A program made the translations under genes and the position numbers. Below the pieces are notes generated by a model, which was not told where the DNA came from, made no database searches, and was given only the letters and a program-made list of their open reading frames with translations. Positions 1 to 64,000 of a stretch of DNA of 64,000 nucleotides are shown piece by piece. This stretch comes from Thermoplasmatota archaeon. Lineage in GTDB: Archaea; Thermoplasmatota; Penumbrarchaeia; Penumbrarchaeales; EX4484-36. The number at the start of each line of letters is the position of its first letter. The stretch's first letter is position 1. Location of the stretch: NCBI GenBank assembly GCA_029932465.1, contig JAOZQA010000003.1, forward strand, positions 6,477 to 70,476, in the 5' to 3' direction.

Positions 1-1
1 T

Positions 2-592
2 CTGCTGAAAATGCTGTTCAGATTGTTTCTTAAGGAGGTGGGAATAATTCTCAACATAACTACGTTGAGCGAGAAGCTCCATGTTAGCAAGGAAAATATG
101 AGGCATCACCTCTTTCTCCTGGAATTCAGTAAGGTGATAAGGATAATCAGGAACTACCGTCCGTCAGTGTTTGCTGAATCACGGAAGCTGCAGAAGGTAT
201 ATCCCTACCACCCCGCGCTGGCGTATGCATATTATGACGATATAAACGAAGACAAAGTTGTGGAGAGCCTCGTGCTCAGCAAACTGGGAATCCAGCATTA
301 TTTCAGAGAGAGAAGCAGGGAGGTGGATTTTCTGAAAGTTGATAAGAATGGCATCCTGCCCATAGAGGTTAAAAATACAAAGAAAGTGGAGGCCACAAAA
401 CTCATGTCTCTTCAATGGTTTATGAGCAAATATAATATCTCCAAAGCGTGGGTTATCTATCTTGGGGATGACAAAATCGAAAAACAAAACGGAATTACAG
501 TTCACTATAAATCTCTCTACAAATTGCTGTATTCAGGCATTGAAGGAGGGAATGACACCGGGTTAAGGACTGCCTCTTATAGAGACCTTTGA
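2..592 (+). CDS. C-terminal part of a COG1373-type AAA+ ATPase (winged-helix plus DUF4143 / PD-(D/E)xK-like tail). The 5' end is cut by the window edge.
   Basis: The reading frame is open to the window edge. The C-terminal block EVDFLKVDKNGILPIEVK resembles the nuclease-like DUF4143 tail of archaeal COG1373 ATPases. The first ~600 nt are AT-rich, unlike the rest of the window. Confidence 0.4.
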   Translation: MLKMLFRLFLKEVGIILNITTLSEKLHVSKENMRHHLFLLEFSKVIRIIRNYRPSVFAESRKLQKVYPYHPALAYAYYDDINEDKVVESLVLSKLGIQHYFRERSREVDFLKVDKNGILPIEVKNTKKVEATKLMSLQWFMSKYNISKAWVIYLGDDKIEKQNGITVHYKSLYKLLYSGIEGGNDTGLRTASYRDL

Positions 593-2117: not shown

Positions 2118-2199
2118 GGGAATCACAACTCCACAAAACGTTTATATAGAGACTTCTGGTTTAACGCACTACCTCACAGTTTAAAAAGAGGTGTATCGT

Positions 2200-15946: not shown

Positions 15947-18900
15947 TCACAGCTCATCGTCTTCATCCCAAACGACATATCTTCTGCGCCTTCTGGGGGT
16001 TCTTTCCTCCCCCGGCTTTTTGAACGAGATCTCCTCAACCTCCGGAGGGGGGACGGAAGGTGCCTCTTCCTCTTCCGGGTATTCCTCCTCCGGCGCCTCC
16101 TCGATCTCACTCAGTTTTTCCTCTTCTTCGGGTATCCCCTCACCAGCCCCCCTCATAAACTCTTTAAGGTCCTCCTCCTTGACCTCCACCGCTGCCGGCT
16201 CCACCGGGGACGGCATAGTCTCTTGGGTGGTCACCGCCGGGGGTGCGGCAGCCTCACCCTCCACCATTTTCTTCAGCGTCTCCACGTCTGGCTCCACCCC
16301 GTAGAGCTCTTTGTACAGCTTCCTCTGTTCAGCGAAGGGGTCCTCTACCATTCTCTTTTTCAACCTCATGTTGTAAATAAGTGCCCCTGCTACAGTTATT
16401 ATTACCATGGCCACGATGGTAAGCGGGAGATATTCACCGAAGACCTTCTCCCTCAGATAGGCAAGCGCTGGGTATTTGGACCTAGGCTTGACCAGGACCT
16501 CAACGCTGTATTCAGGGGAGGTGTAGCTTGTCTGTCCATCCTCACAAACAACTCTGAGGCGGAAGCTGTATACCCTCGCTTTCGTATCCTTCTCCGGAGT
16601 GAAAGCGACTCTCAAGGGGTATACTGCCCCGGGGGGCAAGGTGAGGGAGTAATCCTTGTAGTATAGTTCCAGTTTGATCCACTTCTCACCCGCCCCCTCC
16701 CCTTCAAGGTACACGGTCACGTTGTCGGACAGGTGTGCTTCATTTGTAATGGACACCTCCACCACGAGGGCATCTCCTCTCTCCAACGACCATCTTCTTG
16801 GACCAGTGAAGTTGATGCCGAAATCTATAACCTTGAAAATGTCTCTTTTTAAAGAGGAGAAGTTCCCACCGTCCCAGGCGAGGATCTCCACGTGGTATAT
16901 GCCGTAGGTGAGGGGCTCGGTGAAGTTGAGGTTAGGGCTCTTGCACCATTTCCAGGGAACTATGTCTCCTGAAGCCCAGTCCCTGCCCACTTGAACAAGA
17001 TAGCTCACTGCCTCCCCCTCCGGATCCACAGAACCTCCCCACGAGATCCCCGGGGCGGTGTAGGCGAAGAGGCTCTTGAGAAGTGGGCCGGGGGCTGGTG
17101 GGGGCAGGTCCCCGCTGGAGAGCACGGTGAGGTTGGCCTTGAGGACGTTGGAATTGGAGTGTGAATCATTGGCCACCACCTCCACGAAGTATTTGCCTAC
17201 CCTCAGGTTTACGCTTGCCGGAACGTCTATGAAGTTGTACCTTCCGGTGCTGACCCAGTCCATCACAGTGGTTCCAAAGGTGGCTTCTAGGATTCTCACC
17301 CTGTAGGTTATAGTATCGTTCTCTATGTCCTCTGCTGGATCCCACCATATATGTGGGGTTCTGCTGGCGGTGGTGGAGGGATATATCCTCCCTGTGAGAA
17401 CAGGGGGATAGTTGTCAGGGATTCTTAAGGTGTACCTCACCGGCCCGTAGACGTACCACCCAGTGTCCGCCAGGTCCTTGGCCCGGAACTTGATCATGTT
17501 GAGGTTACCCTCTGTGAGCCTGAAGTGGAACCATATGGTAACGTCACCATGCTCTTCTACAGTGTAGTTTTCCACCTTCTTCCAGGGGGTATAGGGGAGG
17601 ACTTCTGAGTGACTATAACAGTATTCAATGGAAGAGATGTTCACCCCTGACACCTCAAGATCCGGCTGATAGAGGTCCCTATCGTAGACGATAATTGAGA
17701 CGTTTATGTCAGGGAATATCTGAGTTTCGTACGGGCTGGGCTGGAGGTTTCTGAACTTCACCTTTATCGTGTCTATCCAGATGTTCACAGGAGGTGACTC
17801 GTTCAGGTTCCCCACCCTGTCAGTGAACCGCCATTTCACCCAGTTGTACTTTCCTTCGTTGGCCTTGACGTCCAGGTAGGCGTAGACGCTTCCGTTGGGA
17901 AGAACGCTGACATGAGGAAGATCTCCCACCCCAGTGTAAATGTCCGAGCCCAGCGTTTTGATGTAGGCTCTTATACTGCCGGGGGCTACTCCTGCCACCC
18001 CGATATCCTTTATCATGAGGTAGCATCTCACATAAGAGGTGTTGTACCAACGGGGGATTATGGGGCCGTAGTCCAGCACTATGGGCTTTGAGAGGTCAAG
18101 TATGGGCCCCGGGTGTACAGGGGAGATGAGGGGCTCTGTCATATCCCCTGACATCACCTCATAACGGTAGTAGATTCTGCCACTACTCCACTCCACTGTG
18201 GTGGTTGCAATCCAGAGGGAGCCCGCCGTATTGTCTCTCTCGCTCTCGGCGGGTCTCATGACGGTTGCCTCTCCTATCTGTTCTGTGCCGTTTTTGTCAG
18301 CGAAGAGCAGGAGGCGGGGATAGCCGGCTGAGGGGTCATCACCATCTATGTCCCTGTACCAGAGGGTGAAGGTGAACTCCGTCTCGTTTGTCCCAATCTC
18401 GGGGGTGAAGCCCCTGTCCTCGAAGATGGGCGGGCGGTTCTGACCGGTCAGGGTCTCGCTGTAGCGGGCGAAGTATATGTCCGAGCGTGTGAAGAGCTCG
18501 TCTCTGTGGTCAGCCCACACAACAAGGGGCCTTCCTATGGAGTTGAAGGCGAGGTGGGGATCCTCCTGCTTTGTCTCGTCGTCGGCGGTGCCAAGCGTCC
18601 GCTGGGTGTCGTCCACCCTCCTGGCGCCCGTCCATGTGGTGCCGTTGTTTATCGTGTAGGTGAAGTAGATGTCTCCTTCGTCGTGAGAACGGTCCACCCA
18701 GGTTATTCCCACCATCCCCGGGGAGAAGACGGCCACCCTGGGGTTTAGCTCAAGGCCTCCTTCAGGGCCGTTATAGGCTAGCATGTTCATGGTGAAGTTC
18801 CTACCATCCCTGGTGGTGGAGTAGTAGATGTCGTAGGAGCCGAGCCTGTTATCGGACCAGACTATGTATACCAGGCCCGTAGAGTCCACTGCCAGGTCCG

Positions 18901-19723
18901 GGTCGTTCTGGGAATAGGGTTCCAGATCGTCATTTACCCTTCTCTCAGGGAGGAAGGTGTCGCCCCTGTCGTAGGAGACGGCCATGAAGATGCTGAAATC
19001 CCCCTCCCTCTGGTCGCTCCACACTATGAAAACTTTCTCTCCGTAAACAGCGATCTTGGGTCCGTACTGGTCCACACTGAGACCCCCAGAGTTCACCCTC
19101 TTCTCCCCTATCCACGTCACACCTCCGTCCTCAGATCGGGCGAAGTAGACGTGGAACTTGCCACCCTCTCTTTTGTCAAGCCAGGTAAGGTAAAGGGTGC
19201 CGTCCTCACCCACAGCCAAGGAAGGATAGATGGCATCTCTTATTGAGGTGTCAACCCTTCTGTGGGTGGAGAAGTTCACATAGTCCTCGCTCCAGACCAC
19301 GTATACGTGGTAGTAATGGACCCCAATGTAGATCTCCTGGTCATCGCTGTAGGCTACGTAGAGAGTGCCGTTGGGTGCGAAAACGGCGGTGGGGTACATT
19401 TGGTTGGAGAAGTCGTTGCTTGAATTCAAATCCCTTCTGGAATCGTCCACTTGTATCTTTTCACTCCAGGTGTAGCCGCAGTCGGTGGAGCGCGCCATTG
19501 AAATATCCCAGTTGGTGTAGAAGTAGTCCTGATATATCACGAAGAGGTCGTCCATTCCCCTAGTGAGGATGACCGGGCGCCTCTGATGGCTGCCTGTGGA
19601 GTTCCAGTTCACAAGGATGCTGCTGGAGAAGCTGTCTCCAGCGCCTTCGGTGTAATGGGGGATAAGGTAAAGTCCAGACAGCAGAAGGGTAAATAAAACG
19701 GCGAGGCCGAGCATCTTTCGCAT
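15947..19723 (-). CDS. Secreted BNR/Asp-box (sialidase-like) beta-propeller protein with Ig-like repeats, C-terminal TM and a ~150-aa acidic cytoplasmic tail
   Basis: Signal peptide MRKMLGLAVLFTLLLSGL. Asp-boxes STDCGYTW, SEDGGVTW, SYDRGDTF, TTRDGRNF, INNGTTW. TM LPLTIVAMVIITVAGALIY. Tail rich in E/P that ends RRRRRYVVWDEDDEL. Start set at the second ATG (19723); GGAGG lies 4-7 nt upstream. Confidence 0.65.
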   Translation of the reverse strand: MRKMLGLAVLFTLLLSGLYLIPHYTEGAGDSFSSSILVNWNSTGSHQRRPVILTRGMDDLFVIYQDYFYTNWDISMARSTDCGYTWSEKIQVDDSRRDLNSSNDFSNQMYPTAVFAPNGTLYVAYSDDQEIYIGVHYYHVYVVWSEDYVNFSTHRRVDTSIRDAIYPSLAVGEDGTLYLTWLDKREGGKFHVYFARSEDGGVTWIGEKRVNSGGLSVDQYGPKIAVYGEKVFIVWSDQREGDFSIFMAVSYDRGDTFLPERRVNDDLEPYSQNDPDLAVDSTGLVYIVWSDNRLGSYDIYYSTTRDGRNFTMNMLAYNGPEGGLELNPRVAVFSPGMVGITWVDRSHDEGDIYFTYTINNGTTWTGARRVDDTQRTLGTADDETKQEDPHLAFNSIGRPLVVWADHRDELFTRSDIYFARYSETLTGQNRPPIFEDRGFTPEIGTNETEFTFTLWYRDIDGDDPSAGYPRLLLFADKNGTEQIGEATVMRPAESERDNTAGSLWIATTTVEWSSGRIYYRYEVMSGDMTEPLISPVHPGPILDLSKPIVLDYGPIIPRWYNTSYVRCYLMIKDIGVAGVAPGSIRAYIKTLGSDIYTGVGDLPHVSVLPNGSVYAYLDVKANEGKYNWVKWRFTDRVGNLNESPPVNIWIDTIKVKFRNLQPSPYETQIFPDINVSIIVYDRDLYQPDLEVSGVNISSIEYCYSHSEVLPYTPWKKVENYTVEEHGDVTIWFHFRLTEGNLNMIKFRAKDLADTGWYVYGPVRYTLRIPDNYPPVLTGRIYPSTTASRTPHIWWDPAEDIENDTITYRVRILEATFGTTVMDWVSTGRYNFIDVPASVNLRVGKYFVEVVANDSHSNSNVLKANLTVLSSGDLPPPAPGPLLKSLFAYTAPGISWGGSVDPEGEAVSYLVQVGRDWASGDIVPWKWCKSPNLNFTEPLTYGIYHVEILAWDGGNFSSLKRDIFKVIDFGINFTGPRRWSLERGDALVVEVSITNEAHLSDNVTVYLEGEGAGEKWIKLELYYKDYSLTLPPGAVYPLRVAFTPEKDTKARVYSFRLRVVCEDGQTSYTSPEYSVEVLVKPRSKYPALAYLREKVFGEYLPLTIVAMVIITVAGALIYNMRLKKRMVEDPFAEQRKLYKELYGVEPDVETLKKMVEGEAAAPPAVTTQETMPSPVEPAAVEVKEEDLKEFMRGAGEGIPEEEEKLSEIEEAPEEEYPEEEEAPSVPPPEVEEISFKKPGEERTPRRRRRYVVWDEDDEL

Positions 19724-19783
19724 CATATTACCTCCAGATGGCCAGGGGCTTATAAGCATGGGGAATATAAAATATTTGGCAGG

Positions 19784-21934: not shown

Positions 21935-22044
21935 TGGTCCCGGCTCCCGGATTTGAACCGGGGATCTGAGGATCTCTGCGGGGGTCGGGACTGGCCCGAA
22001 GCCTTCTACAGTCCCCCGCTCTAGCCAGACTAAGCTAAGCCGGG
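21935..22044 (-). tRNA. tRNA-Tyr (anticodon GUA) with a ~32-nt intron at the canonical 37/38 position; CCA encoded
   Basis: Manual fold: acceptor CCCGGCU/AGCCGGG, D-arm GCUU...GAGC, anticodon stem GGGGA/UCCUC, loop CUGUAGA, T-arm CCCGG-UUCAAAU-CCGGG, discriminator A + CCA. The extra 32 nt extend the anticodon helix (GGGGGACUG...CAGUCCC..CCCCC), as expected for a BHB motif. Confidence 0.6.
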
Positions 22045-45945: not shown

Positions 45946-46404
45946 TCACCCCTTCTCCTTTCGATACTTTTCAATCTTCCCCCTTCTCCTTATCCTCTTC
46001 TCATCGTTTAAGGGCTCCGTCTGAAGCCACTCCTTCACGATGGACCAGGCGAGCTCAGGGCCGACGACCCTTCCTCCCAGACAGAGCACGTTGGCCGCGT
46101 TGTGCAGCCGACTCATCCTTGCCATATACTCGTTGGTGCAGAGGGCGGCGATCACGCCTTCCACAAGGCTGGCAGCGTTGCACATTCCTATGCCGGTCCC
46201 GCATATGAGTATCCCCCCCTCCGCCTCCCCCCGGGAGACCTTCTCCGCCGCCTTGAAGGCAATATCCGGGTAGTCTACATCCTTGAACTCCATCGTTCCC
46301 ACGTCTTCCAAGAGGTAGCCCTCATCCTCGAGTCTTTCTTTAAGGAATTCCTTCAGGTGGTATCCGCCGTGGTCTGCACCTATGACTATCCTTTTCATTA
46401 TCAC
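45946..46404 (-). CDS. rpiB: Ribose-5-phosphate isomerase B (RpiB/LacAB family)
   Basis: IGADHGG, GILICGTGIGMCNAA with catalytic Cys; ~150 aa. Confidence 0.8.
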   Translation of the reverse strand: MIMKRIVIGADHGGYHLKEFLKERLEDEGYLLEDVGTMEFKDVDYPDIAFKAAEKVSRGEAEGGILICGTGIGMCNAASLVEGVIAALCTNEYMARMSRLHNAANVLCLGGRVVGPELAWSIVKEWLQTEPLNDEKRIRRRGKIEKYRKEKG

Positions 46405-48617
46405 TCCTCCAGGGTCCTTTTAGCTCTCATAAGGCGTACCCAGTAGAAAACAGCTATGAGTAGAGCACCTATGATGAGTGCTGCAAATGAGAGTGTTAGG
46501 ATGTAGTTCATTTCGCCGTCCTCCTCGCTCTCTCCCTTCACTTCAATCTGCGACTCATATATCGTTGTTCCCCGGGGGGTGTAAAGAAACACCTCCACAT
46601 CCTCTCCCTCCTTAAGGGGTTCTGGAAATGTGAGGAGCACCTCCCCGCCCTCCCCCTTTAGGGTGAAGGACTCGTAGGGTCCACCACCTACTCCGCCTCT
46701 TCTCATTCCAGCAAAGAGCTTCAGGTCGGAGTGAAGGGGAGAGGTGGTGTTCACTTCAATGAGTATATATTTGCTACCGGGCTGGATGCCCTTTACTTTC
46801 ACCTGAATGACCTCCCGCAAGCTGAAAACGTGTGCCCTCACAGCGACCTCCTGGGAGAGGTCAGCAACGCTGATGTTGAAGATGTAGGTATGGTTCCCTA
46901 GGAGGGCAGAGGGCTCCCTCGAACCGTTGATGGAGAACGTGATCTTCACCGAATCGCTGCGAGACTCCACTGAATAATTGAGGGCCCCGGGGGCTCCGAC
47001 AACGGCCACGGAGGGGAGGAGGAATCTGTAGATAGGGGTAGTATTTACCCTGAAGGTGATATCCACCTTCACCGGGTCGTCCACGAAGAGGTCAATGTCT
47101 ACCACCTCAGGCTCAACCATAAGCTCCTCGATCTTAACTTTCTTCACCTCCACCGGGTAGGTGAAGAGGAAAGAATTCCCGGAGTGGTTGATGAACACAT
47201 AGAGGGTATAGTTCCCCTCCGGCGTCTCCGGGAGGAGCTCAATGAAAAGAGTGCATGAGAGCGGGAACTCAGGTGTGGCCGTGACCTCATCTAAAAGCCG
47301 TGTGAATATGGTTGAGTTATCACCCTTTATTATTATCCTGCCGGATATGTTCCCAGGGGTATAGATGGTGGCAGAGAGGGTGTAGCATGAGAGATATCCT
47401 GGGTAGAGTTCAAGGCGGTCAACGGGCTCTCCCTCCTCGTCTAAAATCTTAAGACTTACCATCCCCTCCGCGTAGTATATCTTGGCAATGTAGCCGGTGT
47501 AAGCGGTGACATATATCTCGTTCCCTTCAATTATGGAGTCAAAATCTCCTATCAGCACTCCGGCGAGCTCGAACTCCTTTATGTTGGGGGAGCTCCAGAC
47601 TACCCTTGTCTCTATATTCCCACTCACCTCGATCCCCAGGGCGAGGATGTTGGAGTACCCTGTCATGACGGTCACGTTCACCTCCCCGTCCACACTGAGG
47701 GGGCCAGTGGAGAGGCCCTCAAGTCCTCCTTCCCCTTCGGTATCATATATGACCTCTTCTCTGAGCACTCCTCCGGAGTAGCTCAGATGATATGCTTTTC
47801 CGGAGAGGCTCGTGACCACAAGCTCCGCTCCTTGGTCGTCGTCCAGCAGGTTGGCCTCCTTCACGTTGGTCAGGAGGAAGCGGTCCGTAAGAAGGCTCTT
47901 CTGAACGATACCCCCGCTGCTGTTCATCCATATTTCAATCAGGGTGGAATTCTGGGGATAGTCCAAGGTGGCGTAGAGTTCGCCCCCGGGGAGAGTGGGG
48001 TCGAAGTCGGTGTAGAGGAGGCTTTTCACGGGGGCAGAGGTGTTCAGGACGAGGTGCTCCCAGAGGCCCCCTTCCCTCCACAGGACGATTATGTGCGGGG
48101 TCTTCCAGTCCCCGAAATAGAGCTCCTCTCCGCTCACGTTCTTAAGAAGATCCCCCTTAGCCATGGCGAATAACTCGGCCTCCCAGGTGAATACCGTCTC
48201 GGTGCTCTCAAGAGCTAGTGAGCCGTCAAAGGTCAATATCCTCACGGCGCCCGAGTATCCATAAACCATCACCTGATTCTCCCTTGTGAAGTTCCCCCCG
48301 GGCTGCTCGATCCCCATTACAGGGTTCTCCCCCTCTTCATCGGGCTCTTCACTGAATACTATACTTGCCCCCTCCTTACCCTCCTCCTTCAGGAAGACTT
48401 TTCCGTTCCAGTCGGCGAAGACAAGCTCTCGCCTGGAGTCGGAATTCAGGTCGGTGATGGCAAGGGCCCCCGTAAGTGGCGTCTGGGACTGGTAGACGAT
48501 CTCAGATGCGAACTCCTCTGGGAAGGAACTGGCTCCGGATGCAGTCTTCAGGGATAGAAAGGCCGAGAAGAGAACAAGCAGCGTCAGGATGATACATTGG
48601 TGGAGGCGTTTGCTCAT
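46401..48617 (-). CDS. Secreted sequon-rich surface glycoprotein-like protein (beta-propeller/FG-GAP-like N-domain, Ig-like repeats, C-terminal TM anchor)
   Basis: Signal peptide MSKRLHQCIILTLLVLFSAFLSLKTASG from ATG 48617. More than 20 N-x-S/T sequons. C-terminal LTLSFAALIIGALLIAVFYWV then RLMRAKR. TATA AATTTATATA (48641-48650) lies 28 nt before the ATG. The 3' end overlaps the rpiB start. Confidence 0.6.
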   Translation of the reverse strand: MSKRLHQCIILTLLVLFSAFLSLKTASGASSFPEEFASEIVYQSQTPLTGALAITDLNSDSRRELVFADWNGKVFLKEEGKEGASIVFSEEPDEEGENPVMGIEQPGGNFTRENQVMVYGYSGAVRILTFDGSLALESTETVFTWEAELFAMAKGDLLKNVSGEELYFGDWKTPHIIVLWREGGLWEHLVLNTSAPVKSLLYTDFDPTLPGGELYATLDYPQNSTLIEIWMNSSGGIVQKSLLTDRFLLTNVKEANLLDDDQGAELVVTSLSGKAYHLSYSGGVLREEVIYDTEGEGGLEGLSTGPLSVDGEVNVTVMTGYSNILALGIEVSGNIETRVVWSSPNIKEFELAGVLIGDFDSIIEGNEIYVTAYTGYIAKIYYAEGMVSLKILDEEGEPVDRLELYPGYLSCYTLSATIYTPGNISGRIIIKGDNSTIFTRLLDEVTATPEFPLSCTLFIELLPETPEGNYTLYVFINHSGNSFLFTYPVEVKKVKIEELMVEPEVVDIDLFVDDPVKVDITFRVNTTPIYRFLLPSVAVVGAPGALNYSVESRSDSVKITFSINGSREPSALLGNHTYIFNISVADLSQEVAVRAHVFSLREVIQVKVKGIQPGSKYILIEVNTTSPLHSDLKLFAGMRRGGVGGGPYESFTLKGEGGEVLLTFPEPLKEGEDVEVFLYTPRGTTIYESQIEVKGESEEDGEMNYILTLSFAALIIGALLIAVFYWVRLMRAKRTLEE

Positions 48618-48640
48618 GTGGTATTCTCTATATGTGAGGG

Positions 48641-48650
48641 TATATAAATT
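48641..48650 (-). promoter_or_regulatory. TATA box for the leaderless surface-protein gene
   Basis: AATTTATATA (minus strand), centred ~28 nt upstream of ATG 48617. Confidence 0.35.
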
Positions 48651-48686
48651 GTGTTGAGGGGGCAGTGCAAGTTTAAACCAAAAATA

Positions 48687-48700
48687 CAATAAATAAAAAG
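48687..48700 (+). promoter_or_regulatory. TATA box (CAATAAATAAAAAG) for the leaderless pilin-like operon
   Basis: Centred ~28 nt upstream of ATG 48720. Divergent from the box above. Confidence 0.35.
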
Positions 48701-48719
48701 CTCTGTGTAAACCCCGCCC

Positions 48720-49154
48720 ATGGCGAAAAAAAAGATGGATTCTGTGCTCTCCCGCTACAGGGAGGTCTCCCCGAGAGCGGTGCTCCTCACGTCGCTGTCG
48801 GTCATAGTCATCGTGATGGCAGCCTTCAGGTATGCAGAGGAGAGAAGGGAAGAGGTGTTCCGTGAGGCTGCCGAGGGGGAGTACAGAAGGTTTCTTCAGG
48901 AAGCAGGGGTCTTCTCCGGGGGAGATGTGGGGGTTCTTGCGATAAACCTCACCAGGGCGAGGGAGTTCGCCCCCACGGGGAAGATGGGGATTGAGATTAG
49001 AATTGAGGTGTATGGGAGAGAAGAACTTCACCTGAAGAAAGGGCCCTTAAGTGGCCCTTATGAGTACCGCCGAGAGACTAGGCTTCTTCTCTACGACTCC
49101 GGGGTGTACCTCCCAGCCATCCTGGAGTTCAGGGTGAGGGGGGAGGCGCCTTGA
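48720..49154 (+). CDS. Small membrane-anchored protein with a putative class III (type IV pilin-like) signal peptide
   Basis: Charged N-terminus, then RA|VLLTSLSVIVIVMAAF. This matches the [KRDE][GA][ALIFQMVED][ILMVTAS]3 prepilin-peptidase pattern followed by an ~18-aa hydrophobic helix. 144 aa. Confidence 0.4.
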   Translation: MAKKKMDSVLSRYREVSPRAVLLTSLSVIVIVMAAFRYAEERREEVFREAAEGEYRRFLQEAGVFSGGDVGVLAINLTRAREFAPTGKMGIEIRIEVYGREELHLKKGPLSGPYEYRRETRLLLYDSGVYLPAILEFRVRGEAP

Positions 49155-49576
49155 AGATTACTATTCATCCCATGGAGGCCCTCGCAGTTGCCCTGGCCGC
49201 CACTGCCCTCATCATTACGGTCGCATCTCCACATCAGGGAAGTGAAGATGTGGGTCCGGATCCTGAACAGGTCCGGGAGGGCGTGTCAGCTCTTCTTTAC
49301 TCCACTTTGAGCTACCCGGGGGGAGCTACAGTGACTGTGGGGGAGGCGCTTCTCCTGGCACTCAAGGAGGGGACGGTACCAGAGGACCTTCGGGAGGAGG
49401 TCTCATCCCGACTGGACTTCCTCTTCTCTCCACTGAAGTATCAGGTCATATTCTTCTCTGGGGAGGACAGCCAACCCCTAACCTTCGGGGACTTTGAAGG
49501 GGGTCAGCAGCACCTCTTCCGCTACACCTTCTCAGGGGAAGAGCTCGGGGTTATTGTTTCATTGGAGGTGAGATAG
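49151..49576 (+). CDS. Small membrane-anchored pilin-like protein
   Basis: TTG start 6 nt after GGAGG and overlapping the upstream stop. N-terminus MKITIHPMEA|LAVALAATALIITVA (weaker class III match). Confidence 0.35.
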   Translation: MKITIHPMEALAVALAATALIITVASPHQGSEDVGPDPEQVREGVSALLYSTLSYPGGATVTVGEALLLALKEGTVPEDLREEVSSRLDFLFSPLKYQVIFFSGEDSQPLTFGDFEGGQQHLFRYTFSGEELGVIVSLEVR

Positions 49577-52230
49577 TGCTGAGGAGGTTCCGGAAGCAGC
49601 TCCCTTCCATAACCTTAGCGGTCATCTCCGTTATCGCTTTGGTCATCACAGCGCTGCCCGAGGGACGCAAGGAGGGTAAGCTCAGCCAGACCAATGAAGT
49701 CTCGGCGGTGGAAGGCAGAATCGAGGCGTATTTAATGGAGGAGACCGGGCGCCTCCTAGCCGACCCGGGATTCTCAGAGAACTCAACAGGTCTCACAGGA
49801 CTACTTGAAGAGCTTTCGGAAAGACTTACAGAGGGCGGAAGGAACAGAACTTTCACGACCAGAGATTTCCGTTTCCGCCTGGAGGATTTTTCCGCCGTAA
49901 TCCTGCCTATCTTTGGCAACTCCACCCCCTCTGGGGTGGGGAGATACACACTCCTTTGGGGTGAAGGGGGGGTCCCGGCGGCCCTGCCGCTCAGCGGTCC
50001 CCCCTCCCCCCGGGGGATAATATTCCACGTAACCTACACTGCCGCCTTTCAGGAGGGGAGGGGGACCGAGAGGCTCTCAGGGACGATACAATTCGACTAC
50101 TACACCCCCTACCTCACCGCCATATCAGAGTTCTTCTCCTTCGCGAGCGGTAGCAAGGTGACGCTTGAGGGATACCTGGCCAATATGCTGAACGCCCTGG
50201 TGAGGACAAGGGCTGCCCTAGGTGTGGGTACTAGGAGTGGAGACAGCATCTTCGAGCTCCTCTCCCCCCTGGACCTTGAACTCGCCCTGAACATAGCCCT
50301 TCTGCTCTATGAAGTGGAGACCTTCGGCAGCCCGGTGGAGGGTTCCGTTGGAGCCTTAGAGAGGAACTTTTTCAACGTTTCCAGAGGGTTCTCCTCGGAT
50401 GGAGAGGTCAACCCGACCGGTTTCAGAGTCTGGAGCCAGCAAGAGAAGGCGCAGTACAGAGAGTACCTCACAAGGAGGGTCACACTCCCGGATGCCACAA
50501 AGAGAAGGATGGGAGAGCTTTTAAGGAGCGCCGAGGAGAGGGGGCTCCTGTCCCCATCTGAACTTCTCCTGCTCTATCTGGTCTACGACAGGGCTCTTGA
50601 GGAGAAGGGCATCACAGTGGATCCCTTTGACGAAAAAAGCGTTCTCTCCGAGAAGGGATTGGCCAACCCAAGGGACCCCTACTCCACCTTTGACCCAGCG
50701 AACCCGGCATGGATGGCCTCTCTAGCCCCCCAGGACTTTTGGGGCAACCTGACCGGCCTGCACCCCGGCGCTCAAAGAGGTGTTCAGGGCGCTCAGGGCC
50801 CCTTCACAGTGAAGAGAGAGCAGACATACCTTGTCCTGGGAAAAGACTTTGAGGCTGAAGGCCTCTATACCCCCCGGGGCTGGTATACCAACGTCGACCT
50901 CTCAAGGAACGAATCAGAACTTATAAATTACAACAACACGCCGACCCGCGGGGGTGGTGATTGCGAGGAGGAGACCCGCTGTGGGGGAGTACCTCTGCCA
51001 CCCACACCCCCCGACCACGACTTCAGGATAAAATGGGAGATTCGGCTGAGGGGTGAGATCCGCTATACCTTTTCCCTCCCCGGGGGTCCTGCGGTGCTCA
51101 GGAAGGAGGTTGACCTCTCACCAGCCTTTACAGTCTTCTGCTGGTACCCCGAGCGCCCCACCTTCCCGGCTGAGGAGATCACTTTCAGGAACATAAACAC
51201 AGGCGGTGCTGTTCAGACTCAGAACTACTCCATGTGGCTCATAACTCCTGTGGCCAATGCTACGGAGTACTACCTGAAGTACATTTGGCAGGATCTGAGG
51301 GACTTTTTCGGTTGGGGTTACATGCTGGGATCGCTCCTTCGATCTTCCGCTGCCCGAGATATGACCTCATTGCCTGAGGCGGCCCTTGACATCTACGCAG
51401 TAGGGGTGGAGGCCACATCCGCGGGGAGACAGGAAAGGCTTTCAGGAACCTACGCCAGCGTGAAACACTTCATGGAGAGGTACATAGCTGGCAAGGGTAT
51501 TCACCTCTCCGATCTAGGCTATATTGAAGAGGACTCCTTCAACATGACCCTATCCTACCACACAGAGACAGACCTCTTCATCGTAACCGCAACCCTAAAT
51601 AGTGTACGGGTGAGGCTGGAGCTCTACCGAGCCCTGTCTTCTCCGGAGGGGGAGGTCTTCATGGAGATTGCCCCTTCTGGTGAGGCTAAGGACGAGACCG
51701 GCGTTGTGTACAGCGTGAGGCTTCCCCTGTACGGGACCACCCCAGAGACCCCCGGGTTTACACTTGAGGGGGGCTCTCTTTCTGTGAGAGGGGACTCGGA
51801 GGTCCTCACACTTACCGCGAAGGAGCAGCTCTCGGGCTGGTCTCTGTACAGTGAGATAGTTCAGGGCCCAGCAGCGTCGTTCTCATCCGGTGTTACGTCT
51901 CTAAACGGCAGTGTCCTCTGCTGGCAGAGGTCACTTGTGATGGCTGAAGAAGGCACTCCTCTATCTGGCGAGGTGGAGGGGGTTATTACCCACTTCCTTG
52001 AGGTGAATCCCCCTCACCCCTCCCTCCCCTGGTTTTTCTCTCTTCTCGCCCGGGAGGGGGGGAAGCTTTACCTGATCCTCCCCCTGTGGTACCTTATTGA
52101 CCCTGCTCTTCTGGGCGGAGTACTCACGGCCCCTGCGGGAGCTAACATCTCAGATGCCTATATCTCAGTAGAACTGAAATTCACAGGTGGTGGAGGGGGG
52201 GTAGCTTCCCGCTTCACACTGGGTATTTGA
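49576..52230 (+). CDS. Large (884 aa) N-terminally membrane-anchored extracytoplasmic protein of unknown function
   Basis: GTG start overlaps the upstream stop. N-terminal LPSITLAVISVIALVITAL anchor. No recognisable catalytic motifs. Several sequons. Gly-rich C-terminal TGGGGGV. Confidence 0.5.
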   Translation: MLRRFRKQLPSITLAVISVIALVITALPEGRKEGKLSQTNEVSAVEGRIEAYLMEETGRLLADPGFSENSTGLTGLLEELSERLTEGGRNRTFTTRDFRFRLEDFSAVILPIFGNSTPSGVGRYTLLWGEGGVPAALPLSGPPSPRGIIFHVTYTAAFQEGRGTERLSGTIQFDYYTPYLTAISEFFSFASGSKVTLEGYLANMLNALVRTRAALGVGTRSGDSIFELLSPLDLELALNIALLLYEVETFGSPVEGSVGALERNFFNVSRGFSSDGEVNPTGFRVWSQQEKAQYREYLTRRVTLPDATKRRMGELLRSAEERGLLSPSELLLLYLVYDRALEEKGITVDPFDEKSVLSEKGLANPRDPYSTFDPANPAWMASLAPQDFWGNLTGLHPGAQRGVQGAQGPFTVKREQTYLVLGKDFEAEGLYTPRGWYTNVDLSRNESELINYNNTPTRGGGDCEEETRCGGVPLPPTPPDHDFRIKWEIRLRGEIRYTFSLPGGPAVLRKEVDLSPAFTVFCWYPERPTFPAEEITFRNINTGGAVQTQNYSMWLITPVANATEYYLKYIWQDLRDFFGWGYMLGSLLRSSAARDMTSLPEAALDIYAVGVEATSAGRQERLSGTYASVKHFMERYIAGKGIHLSDLGYIEEDSFNMTLSYHTETDLFIVTATLNSVRVRLELYRALSSPEGEVFMEIAPSGEAKDETGVVYSVRLPLYGTTPETPGFTLEGGSLSVRGDSEVLTLTAKEQLSGWSLYSEIVQGPAASFSSGVTSLNGSVLCWQRSLVMAEEGTPLSGEVEGVITHFLEVNPPHPSLPWFFSLLAREGGKLYLILPLWYLIDPALLGGVLTAPAGANISDAYISVELKFTGGGGGVASRFTLGI

Positions 52231-53681: not shown

Positions 53682-54107
53682 TCAGAGGTTGACCCTCTTT
53701 CCACAGGAAGGACAGGTGACGCGATCACCTGTGGATGGGTAAATGGGGATAAGGGTCTGACAATGGGGACAGGTGACGAAGTCCTTGGGATGCTCGTATA
53801 TCTCCTCCATAGCCTCCTCCTTCCATTCCTCCTCGGCCTCACCCACCTCTTCAAACTCCTCTTCCTCCTCCCCCGGCAGCTTCATCTGTTCTTCAGGGAG
53901 TTCGTAAATTTTTGTCTCATCCTGGTGATAGACAACCTCCGCTTCCTCCACCGAGACTGTCTTCCCCTCACCAAAATCAAGGACCTCCTCGGAAGGTATG
54001 AAAACAGGGCTCTTTATGCCCTCAAGCTCCGCCTCCACCTCCGCCACAGGGAATCTTTTAAAGAGAAGCTCATCCATATAGGGGCTCTTTTTCTTCTCAA
54101 GTGGCAT
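53682..54107 (-). CDS. Acidic small protein with a C-terminal C4 zinc ribbon
   Basis: Glu-rich central region; C-terminal CPHCQ...CPSCG. Start moved to the internal ATG 54107 (GGTGA upstream, TATA-like AATATTATAT ~40 nt upstream). Confidence 0.4.
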   Translation of the reverse strand: MPLEKKKSPYMDELLFKRFPVAEVEAELEGIKSPVFIPSEEVLDFGEGKTVSVEEAEVVYHQDETKIYELPEEQMKLPGEEEEEFEEVGEAEEEWKEEAMEEIYEHPKDFVTCPHCQTLIPIYPSTGDRVTCPSCGKRVNL

Positions 54108-54248
54108 ATTGTTCACCAGGAACAAAAAATGGTACATGGCATATAATATTTTCCAGAAGGAAAGAGGTGTCGTACAGCGGCTTTAGGTGAATCTGAGAAA
54201 AAATATATGGGATAAAAGGATAAGGATGCAGCAAAAGGGGTGGTTGGA

Positions 54249-55213: not shown

Positions 55214-55879
55214 ATGATAAATATTTCAGATGAAGATCGCAGGGCGATAGAAGAGGACCTCAAGAAACACATGAAAGGAGGCATTCACATTCTCTACTAC
55301 GGGGGTGGAGGGGAGTGCCCTTACTGTGAGGATACCCTTGAGATCGTAAAGCTCCTAGCCTCTCTCACCGACAAGATCCATGTGGATATAATTGAGGACG
55401 AAGAGCACCCTCTTTATAAGAAGTACACCCCAAAGTACGCCCCGGCCATAATACTTCTCGAGGAGGACATGACCGACACGGGAATACGCTTCTACGGTAT
55501 TCCGGCGGGGTACGAGTTTGAGAGCCTCATGGACGCCGTAATCAACGTCTCAAAAGGGGTAGATGATGTTCCCGAGGAGCTTGAAGAAAGAATAAAGAGG
55601 CTTAAAAAGAAATACATCCTCTCCGTTTTCATCACACCCACGTGCCCCTACTGCCCAATATCAGTGAAGATAGCTCACAGGCTTGCCTATATCAACAGAA
55701 ACATAACTGGAGAGATGATAGAGGCAATAGAATTCCCGGAGTTGGCCCAGAAGTTTGAGGTCATGGGGGTACCGAAAACCGTTATTTTCCATGACGGTGA
55801 CCATCAGTCCTTTGTGGGTGCCTACCCTATAGAGGAGGTTGTGAACTTCCTTGAGGCCATAGAGAGGGGGCCCGATTAG
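55214..55879 (+). CDS. Protein disulfide oxidoreductase (two thioredoxin-fold units, each with CPYC)
   Basis: Two CPYC active sites ~110 aa apart in a ~220-aa protein. This is the architecture of archaeal PDO / glutaredoxin-like proteins. Confidence 0.8.
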   Translation: MINISDEDRRAIEEDLKKHMKGGIHILYYGGGGECPYCEDTLEIVKLLASLTDKIHVDIIEDEEHPLYKKYTPKYAPAIILLEEDMTDTGIRFYGIPAGYEFESLMDAVINVSKGVDDVPEELEERIKRLKKKYILSVFITPTCPYCPISVKIAHRLAYINRNITGEMIEAIEFPELAQKFEVMGVPKTVIFHDGDHQSFVGAYPIEEVVNFLEAIERGPD

Positions 55880-58800
55880 GGTTTTGAGATGGCGCTCTTC
55901 AGCTTCCTTACCTTCTCGCCGCAGCTCATCAGGTAGCCGCTGTTATAAAGGTTCACACAGGAGAGGAAGGTTTTCAGGTACGTTGATATGTCTACACCTG
56001 CTGCCCTCCTGTTGTCTAGAACCGTTGAGAATGAAATCAGGGTGGTCTTGAGGTGTTTGGCTAGATGGAGGTAGTTGTAGAGGGTTTTGGAGATGGATCT
56101 GAGGAAGTAGGTGGCCCTGAGGATGTCATCGACCCGTAGGTAATAGGAGGCCTTCTGCAGCTTTTTCTCAATAAGTGCCTTATCGGGCAGGTCCTTCGCC
56201 TCTTCTAACATTTTTCTGACCAGCACTATAAACTCCTCATAAACCTCCCTGGAGACGGGCTCTCCTTGGCCCACCGTGTCTAGCAGCCCCGGGAGAAGTA
56301 TCACCCAGCTGTACTCCTTTATATAGAACTCTTCATCCCCTATATGGCCGAATATGAACTGAGGAGAACTGTCAGGTTCCCCGGGGCTTACAGGATGTGT
56401 CTCCTCCTCTGTCACCTCAGGGGCTTCTCTCCCCTTCGGCTCAGGGACAGTCCTTATGAGGGCCCCAAGGCCCTGCGGGGAGGTTTTCTTCTTGAGCCCG
56501 TCATCCATGATCCTAGCTTTCATATAGGCTTCAGATGCCAGACGTGATATTCCTTTGAACCCCGTTCTCTTCGGAGCCTTTTCTTTCTTCTCCTTTTTCT
56601 TATCTCTTTCCGCCGCCTTTTTGAGGAGGTCGTCTCCGCTACGGAGGGACTCCTCCAGTGCTTTGAAGTTCCTGTCATACAATGCCCTTTTGATCCTCTC
56701 CGCCACCCCAAGGGACCTTTTCTCCCCTGTGGATGTGAGCTGTTGGTACAGCTCCCATGACTCCTCCACCATCTGCATCCTTCTCTTAAGTTCTGAGAGC
56801 TCTGAGTTGATGTTCTGGAGCCTGCCAACCTCTAGTGTAAGGGATTCCTCCCGTGTCTCCCTTTCAAGCTCCTCGAGCCTTTTGAGAAACTCCGCTCTGA
56901 AATCGCGCCAAGGAGGATGCTTTAAATCCCTAAGTTGCAGTGTTATGAGGTCATAGAGGGACTCTATCTTGCTGTATATGTTCTCCACAGTCTGCATGTT
57001 CTGCGTCAGATTAAGTTCGCTGAGGATCTTCTCAAGGTTCTCAGTGGCTTCCTCAACGCTCTTTACGTGCCCTTCTTTGAAGGCCTTCTCTGCCTCCTCT
57101 TTGATCCGCTCGATTTCTTCCATTCTGGAGCTTTTTATCGTCCCCTTCTTTATAAGCGATGTAGCTAGGGCTTCGGCCTCTTCATAGACCTTCAAAAACC
57201 GTCTGTTATAGAGGACCTTCAGATACAGGTCCTTAGTCTCCGCCAGGAGTTCCTTCAGGGCCTTCATCTCCTTGTTCTCTCCCTCCAGGCGTTTCCTGTA
57301 CCTCTCCAGAGAAGCTAGAAGAGCCTCTGCGTTCTCCCACCCTTCCGCAAGCTTCTCACACTTCTCTATATATTCCCTTATGTTACCCGCTACGGTAGCC
57401 TTCTCTACCATCAGCATTGAGAGGAGCTCTTTCTTCACCGCACTCCCTTTCTCTATAAAGGCTTTGATATTGTCCACCCCAGCGCCTTTCAGCGGGGTGG
57501 AAAGAGAACGGATGAATTTCAGGAATCTCTCCGGGGGATCCATTACCATGGAGAGCTCATTTACAATTCCCTCAAGCTCTTCCTTCAGTGACTTTCTATA
57601 CCTCTCAAAAGCTCCTTTTAAGGCCTTGCGGGCTCTTTCTTCAACTTCCCTATAAAGGGCTACAGACTCCAGTATTTCTCCGTTCTGATACAGGGACCAG
57701 GCCCTTGCCCCCTCCGTCTGGACATCTATCAGGACATCTGGATCGCTTGATATCTGAAGGGTCTCCTGAATGATGTTCCTTATTCTCTTCTCGGTCTCCC
57801 GAACGAATTTGTTCAGACAATCTCTGCTCTGTCTTTCGTAGAGCTTTTTAATGCTGTGAGCGTAGAACATTCTGAAGATATCTGCGTGCTCCCTCTGCGG
57901 ACTGCCCATCTCCCCGTAACCTGCCTCTTTTGCTACCCTCTCCACATCGGGGCAGATATCCTTTATTGTTCTCGCCACCTCCGAGGCGTTCTCCGTAACC
58001 TCACGGATGATTTCTGCAAGGCTCTCTTCATACGTAAGAAGCATACTTGTCATGTCTGTCAGTGCTTCCATGTAGAATGAGTAACTATCCTTCAAAAGGT
58101 TTCTAGCCTTTGCCTCGAGGGAGACAAAACGGGTGTAGATGAGATACTTCATCTCCGACCTCTTGAGCTCTCTTATGATGCTGCTCAGGACGTCCATTAC
58201 AATCTCTTTACTGCAGGAATCCTCCTCTGGTGTTATCCTATCCAGATACTCTTTTACTATCTGAGAATATATTCCTCCTACCCTGTCGTACGATTCCCGG
58301 GATATGAATTTCTCTAGGATGTCGAGCACTGATTTGAAGTAATACCTCTCCGGAGCGAAGGATTCTGCGCTCAATGAGATTATTTTCAAAATGATAGAAC
58401 TATTGAGGATGCCTATCGCTCTCCTTCTCTTCTCTTCTTTCAAAACCGCCTCGAGTTCATTGAAAAGTTCGTTGATGCGGTCAAAATATGTCTGAGGGTT
58501 GACCCCCCTCCTCATCTCTTCCATCTTTTTTAATTCATCTCTGTAATCAGATGTGTCGTATCCCAGCCTCTCAAGTGAGGTGAGCTTGACCTCAATTTCC
58601 TTCAGGAGGTAATCGCCCTCCTTCACCCAGAATGTTCTGTTGATCTCCTCTATCTCTTTCTTAATTTTAAGGGCACCTTCTATCTTCTTCTCCACTCCGG
58701 GGAGGTTCTTGACAGTTTGCAGTTCTTTTCTCAGGTAACCCACTGGAAAGTCGTTTTTCTCCATCTCGTTCAGCTCGTCTCCTATGCTTTTCAGAAACTC

Positions 58801-60213
58801 TTCGAAGCTCTCCCCGAAGTTCCTGTAAAAGTTGTCTAGAAAGTGAAAATATAGGTCAAAAAAGAGGTAGTATTTTTCCGGGGAGCTCTCCCTCCTGTCG
58901 ATCTCTTCAAAGCTGTTGAACAACTCCTCGGAAATAACCCCATGGTCGTGGAGAAGCTGGACGGTTTCGTACTTCTCCTCATATAGCTCCTCCATCTCCT
59001 CAGTGCTCTTCTCCATAAGGTATTTTATGGTCATGTTGAGGCGTTCAATGGTGTGAGCAGCGTCAAAGGTTAGACCTTTAGCGAGCTTCTTTTCAATTAG
59101 TTTGATATTCTCCTCAATATAGACGTTCACCTCTGAAGCGAGCCACTTGTCCTTTACCTTTTTTATCTCCTCTATGTTTTCTTTCACATTTTCCGTAAGC
59201 GATTCCATTTCAAGGAGTATTGTGCAGAAGTAATCCACATATTTTTCGGGAGGCGCTCTTCTGACAAGATCCTCAAGGTTTATTGACCTGTTCACTATGC
59301 TCTTAAAGAGATGCTTCAGCCTATCTTCATAGGAATCCCTGTAATAGTTCAGGTTCAAAAGACGCATTAGCCCCTCTTTGAGCTCAAGGACCACACCGCT
59401 CCATCTGATGTGTGGATCAACGGAATATCCTCTTTTGAGGGCCCTGACCGCTTCTCTATACTCTCCTCTGAATATGTGCGCCTTTGCGAGATATATGTAT
59501 GCTAGGGCGTCGTCTTTGTTCTGCTCAAGATAGCGCGAAAGCGTTTGCAAGGCCGCAGAGTATTCACCGAGGGAGATGGCTACGGAGGAGTACAGCATCT
59601 GGAAATGGGGTGAATCGGAGAACTTGCTGCGGTATCTCTGCAGAAGGAAATACGCTTCAGGAAGGTTCTCCTCTTTGAGGAGAAGTCTCACCACCTTGAC
59701 GCACTCTGTGCTGAAGTTTATATTAAGGTTTTTAAGGAGAGGAAGGAACCTCTCCGTGACCTCTTCAACCCCGTCCCCCTGGAACAGGTTGATGGTCTCA
59801 ACTAGGCAATCAACCCACCTTATATCTCCTTTCTCCAGTGCTGTGAAAAGCTCCTTTTTTGCTTCCCGCGGCATATCGCTAAAGAACTTTAGTTTCGCAA
59901 GGATGAGATGAGCTTCGGGGCTTATATGTTCGGGCTCCGCCTTCCCAAACTCCCTATCTAGGATTTTCTCAGCCTTCTTGTACTCACCCTTCTTGATGTG
60001 GATCAGTGCATGTATGAGAGAGAGGTCACTGCACTGGGGAAACTCTTTCGCAAGCCTTGTGACAGCGTTCTCATAGACATCCAGGTCTTTCTCTATCATC
60101 TCCTCTGTCGGGAAGATCGTTAGAGTGTTCTGGGAGAGGCTCCCTCGGCAGTTCGGACAGACCTCCCCTGTCGAGCCATCTTTTAATTCCATCCCACACA
60201 GCAGGCACTTCAA
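55876..60213 (-). CDS. Giant (1,445 aa) soluble protein: N-terminal C4 Zn ribbon, TPR-like repeats, and >900 aa of coiled-coil / alpha-helical repeats. Function unknown.
   Basis: TTG start 4 nt after GGAGG gives CLLCG-x13-CPNC. TPR-like helices (AYIYLAKAHIFRGEYREAVRALKRG). A long E/K/L-rich heptad-like sequence. No TM, no P-loop. GC lower than the flanking genes. Confidence 0.6.
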   Translation of the reverse strand: MKCLLCGMELKDGSTGEVCPNCRGSLSQNTLTIFPTEEMIEKDLDVYENAVTRLAKEFPQCSDLSLIHALIHIKKGEYKKAEKILDREFGKAEPEHISPEAHLILAKLKFFSDMPREAKKELFTALEKGDIRWVDCLVETINLFQGDGVEEVTERFLPLLKNLNINFSTECVKVVRLLLKEENLPEAYFLLQRYRSKFSDSPHFQMLYSSVAISLGEYSAALQTLSRYLEQNKDDALAYIYLAKAHIFRGEYREAVRALKRGYSVDPHIRWSGVVLELKEGLMRLLNLNYYRDSYEDRLKHLFKSIVNRSINLEDLVRRAPPEKYVDYFCTILLEMESLTENVKENIEEIKKVKDKWLASEVNVYIEENIKLIEKKLAKGLTFDAAHTIERLNMTIKYLMEKSTEEMEELYEEKYETVQLLHDHGVISEELFNSFEEIDRRESSPEKYYLFFDLYFHFLDNFYRNFGESFEEFLKSIGDELNEMEKNDFPVGYLRKELQTVKNLPGVEKKIEGALKIKKEIEEINRTFWVKEGDYLLKEIEVKLTSLERLGYDTSDYRDELKKMEEMRRGVNPQTYFDRINELFNELEAVLKEEKRRRAIGILNSSIILKIISLSAESFAPERYYFKSVLDILEKFISRESYDRVGGIYSQIVKEYLDRITPEEDSCSKEIVMDVLSSIIRELKRSEMKYLIYTRFVSLEAKARNLLKDSYSFYMEALTDMTSMLLTYEESLAEIIREVTENASEVARTIKDICPDVERVAKEAGYGEMGSPQREHADIFRMFYAHSIKKLYERQSRDCLNKFVRETEKRIRNIIQETLQISSDPDVLIDVQTEGARAWSLYQNGEILESVALYREVEERARKALKGAFERYRKSLKEELEGIVNELSMVMDPPERFLKFIRSLSTPLKGAGVDNIKAFIEKGSAVKKELLSMLMVEKATVAGNIREYIEKCEKLAEGWENAEALLASLERYRKRLEGENKEMKALKELLAETKDLYLKVLYNRRFLKVYEEAEALATSLIKKGTIKSSRMEEIERIKEEAEKAFKEGHVKSVEEATENLEKILSELNLTQNMQTVENIYSKIESLYDLITLQLRDLKHPPWRDFRAEFLKRLEELERETREESLTLEVGRLQNINSELSELKRRMQMVEESWELYQQLTSTGEKRSLGVAERIKRALYDRNFKALEESLRSGDDLLKKAAERDKKKEKKEKAPKRTGFKGISRLASEAYMKARIMDDGLKKKTSPQGLGALIRTVPEPKGREAPEVTEEETHPVSPGEPDSSPQFIFGHIGDEEFYIKEYSWVILLPGLLDTVGQGEPVSREVYEEFIVLVRKMLEEAKDLPDKALIEKKLQKASYYLRVDDILRATYFLRSISKTLYNYLHLAKHLKTTLISFSTVLDNRRAAGVDISTYLKTFLSCVNLYNSGYLMSCGEKVRKLKSAISKP

Positions 60214-60305
60214 TCTTCAGCCTCCGAACTTTAAGTTTTTAGACCCTTGTCCTATTTATAGATTTTCTGACCACTCCCGGGGGGTAAGAATCATCAATGT
60301 CCCCA

Positions 60306-61690: not shown

Positions 61691-61904
61691 ACTTTACATT
61701 CACTTTATTCTGCCTGGAAAGGCCTCCGCCCCGTCAAAGGGTGTGGAGAAAATTTATTAAGTGGTTGTGTATAACCACGCCTGCTCAAGTGCACTCCGTG
61801 AATTGGAGCGTTCACGGAGGAAGGAGCTGAGACCGAGGCAAGAGCCAGTGAGGTCGTTGAATGCTCACATCATACGCATGTTGGACGAGTACTGGACTGG
61901 TAGT

Positions 61905-64000
<2,096 letters not shown>

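Follow-up and report, generated by a model that had tools for sequence, protein, structure and literature searches.

Organization of the locus

The stretch analysed here (hereafter the window) is 64,000 nucleotides (nt) of DNA from a Thermoplasmatota archaeon (assembly GCA_029932465.1, contig JAOZQA010000003.1, positions 6,477 to 70,476). It carries, between hisS and the convergent gene pdo, a minus-strand gene for a giant protein of 1,445 amino acids (aa). This protein begins with a predicted C4 zinc ribbon and a tetratricopeptide repeat (TPR) region, continues into a long acidic helical region (hereafter the rod) and ends with a basic linker and a compact C-terminal domain (table 1). Only its first fifth, namely the zinc ribbon and the TPRs, resembles anything known, and the protein is a lineage-restricted orphan. 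Beyond this head it is all-helical, but it is not a coiled coil of the SMC or intermediate-filament type.

Table 1. Features of the giant gene and its product, with positions in the window.
Feature	Residues	Position	Strand	Details
TATA-like A/T-rich box TATAAATA with purine-rich AGAAAA just upstream, resembling a B recognition element (BRE)		60253..60268 (box 60260-60253)	-	read from sequence
Shine-Dalgarno-like GGAGG		60221..60225	-	spacer of 7 nt to the TTG
TTG start and N-terminal C4 zinc-ribbon motif	1-26	60136..60213	-	C3, C6, C19, C22
TPR/TPR-like alpha-solenoid	~41-280 (canonical TPRs ~172-270)	59374..60093	-	Pfam
Acidic all-alpha region (rod)	281-1206	56596..59373	-	~32 helices of 8-45 residues, short loops
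Disordered basic linker, K/E/P-rich	1207-1284	56362..56595	-	pLDDT <50
Helical motif GF[KR]GIS[RK][LI]ASEA[YF]xK, inside linker	1218-1237	56503..56562	-	four-lineage alignment
Motif PxG[LV]G[AS]L, inside linker	1246-1252	56458..56478	-	four-lineage alignment
Basic C-terminal domain	1285-1445	55879..56361	-	beta-hairpin (1285-1300) and 7 helices
Stop codon		55876..55878	-	3' end overlaps convergent pdo (thioredoxin-fold) gene by 4 nt

A previous reading of the DNA alone (hereafter the sequence-only reading) had described the gene as a single uninterrupted open reading frame (ORF), and this is indeed what is found: one frame, 55876..60213, of 1,445 codons plus a stop. An in-frame TGA precedes the TTG at 60213 by two codons, so that only this TTG (codon 1) or the ATG at codon 8 can serve as start. 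The TTG is favoured because GGAGG would lie 28 nt from the ATG, and it is also the TTG that gives the full C4 motif, which the ATG would halve. The sequence-only reading had chosen the same start and the same GGAGG, both of which stand, but had placed the latter 4 nt from the start instead of 7. NCBI annotations of three near-identical copies likewise start at the TTG (1,445 aa); other gene callers give 1,438 aa. About 40 nt upstream of the start, within the 92-nt spacer that separates the gene from hisS, the TATAAATA box and the adjoining AGAAAA may be viewed, by the general archaeal TATA/BRE consensus, as a putative promoter of the gene's own.

This is a genuine, intact and functional gene that evolves under purifying selection. 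Sixteen independent assemblies carry the protein at 99% identity or more and at the same length, and a divergent ortholog of 48% identity aligns with it collinearly, with few gaps, over residues 167-1445; no frameshift or fusion, an outcome that the sequence-only reading had itself put forward as a possible objection, was seen. The ratio of non-synonymous to synonymous substitution rates (dN/dS, Nei-Gojobori) is 0.20/1.63 and 0.16/1.02 against two other lineages described below (L006 and L005, respectively), i.e. approximately 0.12-0.16, and an open frame of 1,445 codons would arise by chance with a probability of about 1e-30, calculated as (61/64)^1445. The notion that the ORF is a fused, frameshifted or non-coding artefact of annotation or assembly is refuted by these four lines of evidence and deserves virtually no credence.

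Domain architecture of the giant protein

Two CxxC knuckles with a short spacer between them, C3-x2-C6-x12-C19-x2-C22 (i.e. CxxC-x12-CxxC), predict a C4 zinc ribbon created by the TTG start, as the sequence-only reading had recognized. When residues 1-44 are searched alone, they match several zinc-ribbon models of Pfam but exceed the cut-off of none, as is usual for motifs of about 25 residues: DZR_2 (E = 0.0026; 18 bits versus a cut-off of 27), Zn_Ribbon_1 (14.4 bits versus 25) and, as further echoes, Prok-RING_1 and rubredoxin-like models. The TPR-like repeats are confirmed by three Pfam families whose cut-offs are exceeded in a search with the whole protein, namely TPR_19 (E = 2e-14; 54.1 bits, cut-off 25), TPR_14 (36.6 bits, cut-off 23.5) and ANAPC3 (33.2 bits, cut-off 27.2). 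These scores rise when residues 1-280 are searched alone, TPR_16 also matches, and a TPR_21-like match lies at residues 41-123. By curated hidden Markov models scoring above their gathering thresholds, the protein therefore belongs to the TPR repeat superfamily, although the TPR portion makes up less than 20% of it. TPRs are protein-protein interaction modules.

The rod was modelled with AlphaFold2 (AF2) as part of residues 281-1445, from an alignment of only two sequences. Its secondary structure is clear, with about 32 helices of median length 20 and maximum length 45 residues, and the predicted local distance difference test (pLDDT) reaches 72-85 at residues ~990-1205. The protein as a whole is rich in E, K, L and Y (13.2%, 9.3%, 12.2% and 4.6%, respectively), in line with the sequence-only reading. 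In a crude home-made test, heptad-consistent 28-mers cover 272 of the 920 rod residues versus 33 +/- 29 in shuffled sequences; they form separate stretches of 28-51 residues, eight across the whole protein and seven of them in the rod. Thus, of the earlier description of nearly 1,000 residues of helical or coiled-coil sequence, the all-alpha character holds, but a long coiled coil is overstated.

No internal repeat was detected in the protein by self-BLAST, and when segments of 140 residues were compared with hhalign, the highest probability was 31%. The rod has no match in Pfam, in PDB sequences or in a Foldseek search of the PDB. Structural searches were carried out with both AF2 models against the PDB and with the rod model against BFVD, and none returned a match at E <= 0.001 or with a template-modelling score (TM-score, query-normalized) above about 0.3. 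For the rod, the best PDB match had E = 0.17, with TM-scores of about 0.1 or less (dynein tails, vinculin), and BFVD gave tape-measure-like matches (E = 5e-3 to 0.1; TM-score 0.07).

The linker is the least conserved segment overall (37% identity to the most divergent ortholog, 53% to L006). Amid this poor conservation, the two motifs of table 1 are kept in all lineages covering them, they are candidate linear binding motifs, and AF2 places a helix at residues 1224-1238 of the otherwise disordered chain. The C-terminal domain, covered by a second AF2 model (residues 1205-1445; alignment of three sequences), is a compact unit of about 160 residues with a pLDDT of approximately 90 across residues 1285-1444. 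It is among the best-conserved segments (55-74% identity between lineages), with C1419, C1431 and H1387 invariant. Its profile has no match among PDB sequences, and Foldseek against the PDB gave at best EzrA (4uy3; E = 1.2, TM-score 0.18), followed by PA28 and helices of G-protein-coupled receptors. Charge is polarized along the chain, with isoelectric points (pI) of 5.3 for the rod, 9.4 for the linker and 8.9 for the C-terminal domain.

Relatives, synteny and host clade

A word-indexed search of 5.8 billion clusters returned the giant itself (P0001, 28 members) and a single ortholog, the 48%-identical sequence mentioned above (P0002). The latter is N-terminally truncated and comes from the metagenome-assembled genome (MAG) 'Thermoplasmata archaeon AUK266' (GCA_021160765.1, contig L001). 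By segment, its identity to the giant is 60% in the TPRs (residues 167-280), 59% at 281-600, 43% at 601-950, 39% at 951-1200, 37% in the linker and 55% in the C-terminal domain. A profile search (HMMER) with residues 281-1445 against 1.84 billion representatives at 50% identity gave nothing but P0002 and P0003, the latter a C-terminal fragment of 183 aa, a C-terminal profile search gave P0003 only, and the GTDB species genomes and JGI metagenomes that were scanned yielded one locus each, both already-known members of the family. With pdo homologs as a guide to diverged orthologs, two further lineages were reached on short Logan contigs: L006, with a 499-aa C-terminal fragment 67% identical to the giant, and L005, with about 200 aa at 74% identity. 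In L005, homology to the giant extends upstream of the called start of P0003 (positions 1..66 of the contig), to a stop that lies five codons from where the contig ends, which shows P0003 to be a truncated gene call and not a stand-alone C-terminal domain.

The distribution of the giant is thus very narrow, as word-indexed and profile searches return nothing but the giant's own family. A match to a well-characterized family, the other objection foreseen by the sequence-only reading, does not occur beyond the TPR part. Copies are already found in databases as 'hypothetical' or as 'tetratricopeptide repeat protein', the latter being the NCBI name of some of them. The same reading had considered proteins of this size rare in archaea. 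The window alone holds three other ORFs of 1,270-2,495 aa, which tempers this statement; all three carry domains of surface or secreted type.

In all four lineages (window, AUK266, L005 and L006), the 3' end of the giant gene is convergent on pdo, and in the window lineage and AUK266 pdo is followed by pdxS, a small zinc-ribbon protein and purB. This shared slot beside pdo argues for vertical inheritance of the giant. Identities of pdo across the lineages are 100, 82, 76 and 64%, after which they drop to 47% or less. In the Thermoplasmata at this lower level, pdo adjoins rpoK-rps2 and the giant gene is missing. The giant family is thus confined to one poorly sampled clade.

Table S4 of a study of Ca. 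Penumbrarchaeia lists GCA_021160765.1 as a MAG of this group (GTDB class EX4484-6), and the same source, where it describes family 1B, places it in Guaymas and Pescadero hydrothermal sediments only (PMC12220078). Sequences of the giant family come from Guaymas MAGs and from a hydrothermal-vent metagenome, which matches the habitat of family 1B. The host clade is thus probably a group of hydrothermal-sediment Thermoplasmatota within Ca. Penumbrarchaeia, and we infer that the window belongs to family 1B.

Base composition and whole-protein searches

The G + C content (GC) of the giant gene is 48.0%, against a window mean of 53.3%, and just its central stretch (58000-59500) falls to 43-46%; the flanking genes are at 48.5% (pdo) and 55.2% (hisS). 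The values of the sequence-only reading, about 45% for the gene and about 58% for both pdo and hisS, are not reproduced. At third codon positions (GC3) the gene, with 0.608, falls near the bottom of the range covered by its neighbours (0.60-0.72), and at second positions (GC2) it reaches 0.318. Its low GC is hence mostly owing to amino-acid composition, rich in E, K, L, I, Y and N. The same offset is seen in the AUK266 ortholog (0.436 versus 0.480 for the rest of its contig), and the C-terminal third available from L006 displays no deficit (0.553 versus 0.529). A foreign origin, to which the low GC had seemed to hint, was consequently rejected, the offset being mainly one of GC2 and absent from the L006 part, the syntenic slot being the same in four lineages and the gene being under purifying selection.

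No transmembrane segment was found (maximum 19-residue Kyte-Doolittle value 1.45), nor any Walker A or B ([AG]xxxxGK[ST], hhhhD[DE]), HExxH or DEAD motif. The view of a cytoplasmic, non-enzymatic-looking protein that lacks transmembrane and nucleotide-binding features is borne out, no catalytic or NTPase signature having emerged. Searches of NCBIfam, PADLOC, PHROGs and PDB sequences, with the single sequence as well as with profiles, recovered nothing beyond the TPRs (PADLOC: 0 matches at E <= 1; PHROGs: none below E = 0.17), and a tblastn search of plasmids and phages gave no match. The sub-threshold Pfam echoes obtained from orthologs (FliS, ABC-3C CTD8, EzrA) are short helical matches well under their cut-offs. 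Likewise, the earlier statement that no motif backs any specific role agrees with the Pfam, NCBIfam, PADLOC and PHROGs scans and with the motif search.

Other features of the window

The small zinc-ribbon gene that follows pdxS (53682..54137, minus strand) encodes a very acidic protein of 141-151 aa. This protein carries a CxxC...CxxC zinc ribbon at its C-terminus and exceeds the cut-off of no Pfam family; a 65%-identical ortholog occupies the same syntenic slot of the AUK266 contig (L001, 5655-6062). Farther along, 46401..52230 holds ORFs without any Pfam match, one of 876 aa on the minus strand followed by a plus-strand tandem of 144, 141 and 884 aa. Several of these have hydrophobic N-terminal segments, and they may form an uncharacterized surface or pilus-like gene set.

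The other giants of the window lie at its opposite end. The largest (6606..14093, plus strand; 2,495 aa) combines an STT3/AglB oligosaccharyltransferase N-terminal region with some 1,800 residues of CarboxypepD_reg, SdrD_B and CARDB Ig-like domains, and its neighbours at 2191..6480 (PQQ beta-propeller and PKD) and 15947..19759 (BNR) also carry domains of surface or secreted type.

Two RNA features were noted as well. An archaeal 23S rRNA gene (61903..64000, plus strand; Rfam, 2001 bits) is divergent from hisS and cut by the window end. As no 16S rRNA gene occurs in the upstream 62 kilobases (kb), the rRNA genes are unlinked, a situation known in Thermoplasmata, with which a 23S gene lacking its 16S partner fits. 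An Rfam tRNA call at 21938..22044 (minus strand) spans 107 nt, long enough for an intron, and is missed by ARAGORN.

Discussion

Tentatively, we favour the reading of the giant as a vertically inherited, clade-restricted cytoplasmic scaffold or tether. The layout of its domains, the lack of enzymatic, NTPase and membrane features, the purifying selection, the conserved synteny and the restricted distribution are the observations from which this reading starts. What these observations may suggest is the scaffold role itself, binding at both ends and the kind of partners involved. The zinc ribbon and TPR solenoid would be the place where one or more partner proteins dock, and the acidic array of helical bundles, about 920 residues long, would provide an extended spacer or assembly surface. 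The flexible basic linker, with its two conserved motifs, and the compact basic C-terminal domain would then constitute a second binding end, whose possible partners are anionic, for example nucleic acid, a membrane surface or an acidic protein.

Several points weigh against this reading. A scaffold is the default interpretation of any protein made of TPRs and helices, and the neighbours are unrelated housekeeping genes, so that genomic context offers no functional link. The AF2 model of residues 281-1445 is of low confidence (mean pLDDT 56; predicted TM-score 0.32). The zinc ribbon is read from a cysteine motif in copies of the window lineage, where complete copies are at least 99% identical, all divergent orthologs being cut by contig ends before residue 167. 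Finally, the amphipathicity of the linker helix is moderate, with a hydrophobic moment of about 0.5 versus a protein mean of 0.32 (approx. 1.3 standard deviations above), and on this account a membrane-targeting helix in the linker was dropped from consideration.

Comparison with known systems delimits what is shared and what is not. With generic TPR scaffolds (TPR_19, TPR_14 and ANAPC3 type) the giant shares residues ~41-280, which exceed the family cut-offs, and presumably a docking role, but its other 1,165 residues match no family among the 1.84 billion representatives, Pfam, NCBIfam and PDB. Prokaryotic DZR/Zn_Ribbon_1 modules fused to TPRs likewise have a CxxC-x12-CxxC motif followed by TPRs, in the giant at the extreme N-terminus; however, the giant has a single ribbon with sub-cut-off scores and no adjacent transmembrane segment, and its long helical extension and C-terminal domain are unique. 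Size and an E/K/L-rich helical composition are shared with SMC/Rad50 tethers and coiled-coil-rich cytoskeletal proteins, but the giant possesses neither ATPase head motifs nor a hinge nor a long uninterrupted coiled coil. Indeed, it has no Walker motif, no SMC or AAA Pfam match, no helix above 45 residues and no heptad stretch above 51, so that the SMC-like tether listed by the sequence-only reading finds no support. Nor is it a crescentin or intermediate-filament-like rod, given the scattered, short heptad stretches and the limited helix length. A phage tail tape-measure protein is no better supported, the BFVD matches having a TM-score of just 0.07, with no PHROGs match below E = 0.17, no phage match by tblastn and no phage genes nearby.

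Among alternative readings, a self-assembling structural or cytoskeletal element, comparable to bacterial coiled-coil-rich proteins or to the spectrin-like EzrA, seems unlikely. The helical region would polymerize or assemble into a lattice, giving the cell its shape or organizing division, with the TPRs and the C-terminal domain as attachment points. Such a role is consistent with a large, E/K/L-rich, all-alpha protein, with a heptad-consistent content approximately eight times that of shuffled sequences and with sub-threshold echoes of EzrA (PF06160, E = 0.013 in one of four orthologs; Foldseek 4uy3, E = 1.2). Like EzrA/spectrin, vinculin, the talin rod and the dynein tail, the giant displays an all-alpha array of 20-45-residue helices, a likeness of secondary-structure class only. 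Yet helices and heptad stretches are short, repeat periodicity is lacking, structural similarity is far from significance (E = 0.17 or worse, TM-score of about 0.3 or less) and, unlike EzrA, the protein has no transmembrane anchor; it is therefore not a member of the EzrA/spectrin group.

It is improbable that the giant is a nucleic-acid-associated regulator or organizer, whose zinc ribbon and basic C-terminal end would bind DNA, RNA or the transcription-translation machinery and whose rod and TPRs would recruit other proteins. Among archaeal proteins that bind nucleic acids or RNA polymerase, an N-terminal C4 zinc ribbon is common, both the linker and the C-terminal domain have a basic pI, and the gene adjoins hisS at ~1.7 kb from the 23S rRNA gene, a weak argument of proximity. 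Zinc ribbons mediate protein-protein contacts too, however, and neither a helix-turn-helix (HTH), winged HTH, KH, OB or other binding family (Pfam, NCBIfam) nor a fold match of the C-terminal domain to DNA- or RNA-binding proteins was detected.

It is more doubtful that the giant is a TPR-type chaperone or adaptor that helps to assemble a surface or secretion apparatus, for instance pili or secreted giant proteins, of which the genome has many. This idea draws on an NCBIfam match to SctY (E = 7e-7, but 29.7 bits versus a cut-off of 70), on sub-threshold matches to LcrH/SycD, PilW and HrpB1_HrpK, on the several giant extracellular proteins of the window and on the uncharacterized cluster at a distance of 4 kb, whose products have hydrophobic N-termini. 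These matches reflect generic TPR similarity under the family cut-offs, the giant is about 10 times the size of class II chaperones, and no secretion or pilus gene is adjacent or co-oriented, the conserved neighbours being pdo, pdxS and purB.

That the giant acts in an anti-virus or conflict system, or that its gene is mobile and was acquired recently, is very improbable, even though the sequence-only reading had listed a defence role among its candidates. Some defence NTPases use TPR arrays as sensors, GC is about 5 points under the window mean, and ABC-3C CTD8 is echoed below threshold in three of four orthologs (best E = 0.017; 14 bits versus 27.6). But the giant has no NTPase, nuclease or other effector domain and no phage or plasmid relative, PADLOC-DB (including ABC-3C and STAND/Avs systems) returned nothing, the neighbourhood of hisS, pdo, pdxS and purB is a housekeeping one conserved in four lineages, and the GC deficit resides in codon position 2 and is absent from the L006 part.

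Coming back to the scaffold or tether, the giant is best described as an orphan family joined to a known module. This is moderately unusual, but unsurprising for an under-sampled archaeal class; nothing points to a new mechanism, and no long-standing question becomes directly testable through the protein. We consider it unlikely that it founds an undescribed archaeal structural or organizing family, restricted to the hydrothermal clade of Ca. Penumbrarchaeia, in which a new-fold C-terminal domain would anchor the helical rod to the membrane or nucleoid; if true, this would amount to a lineage-specific cytoskeleton-like or tethering system without counterpart elsewhere. The present value of the analysis lies in an orphan family with clear limits, for which domain boundaries, conserved motifs and four lineages are now defined, and in a corrected impression, namely that the low GC stems from amino-acid composition and does not testify to horizontal transfer. 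In any case, if the favoured reading holds, the giant would be a clade-specific organizer of cell architecture, found in a Thermoplasmatota class that is rare and uncultured.

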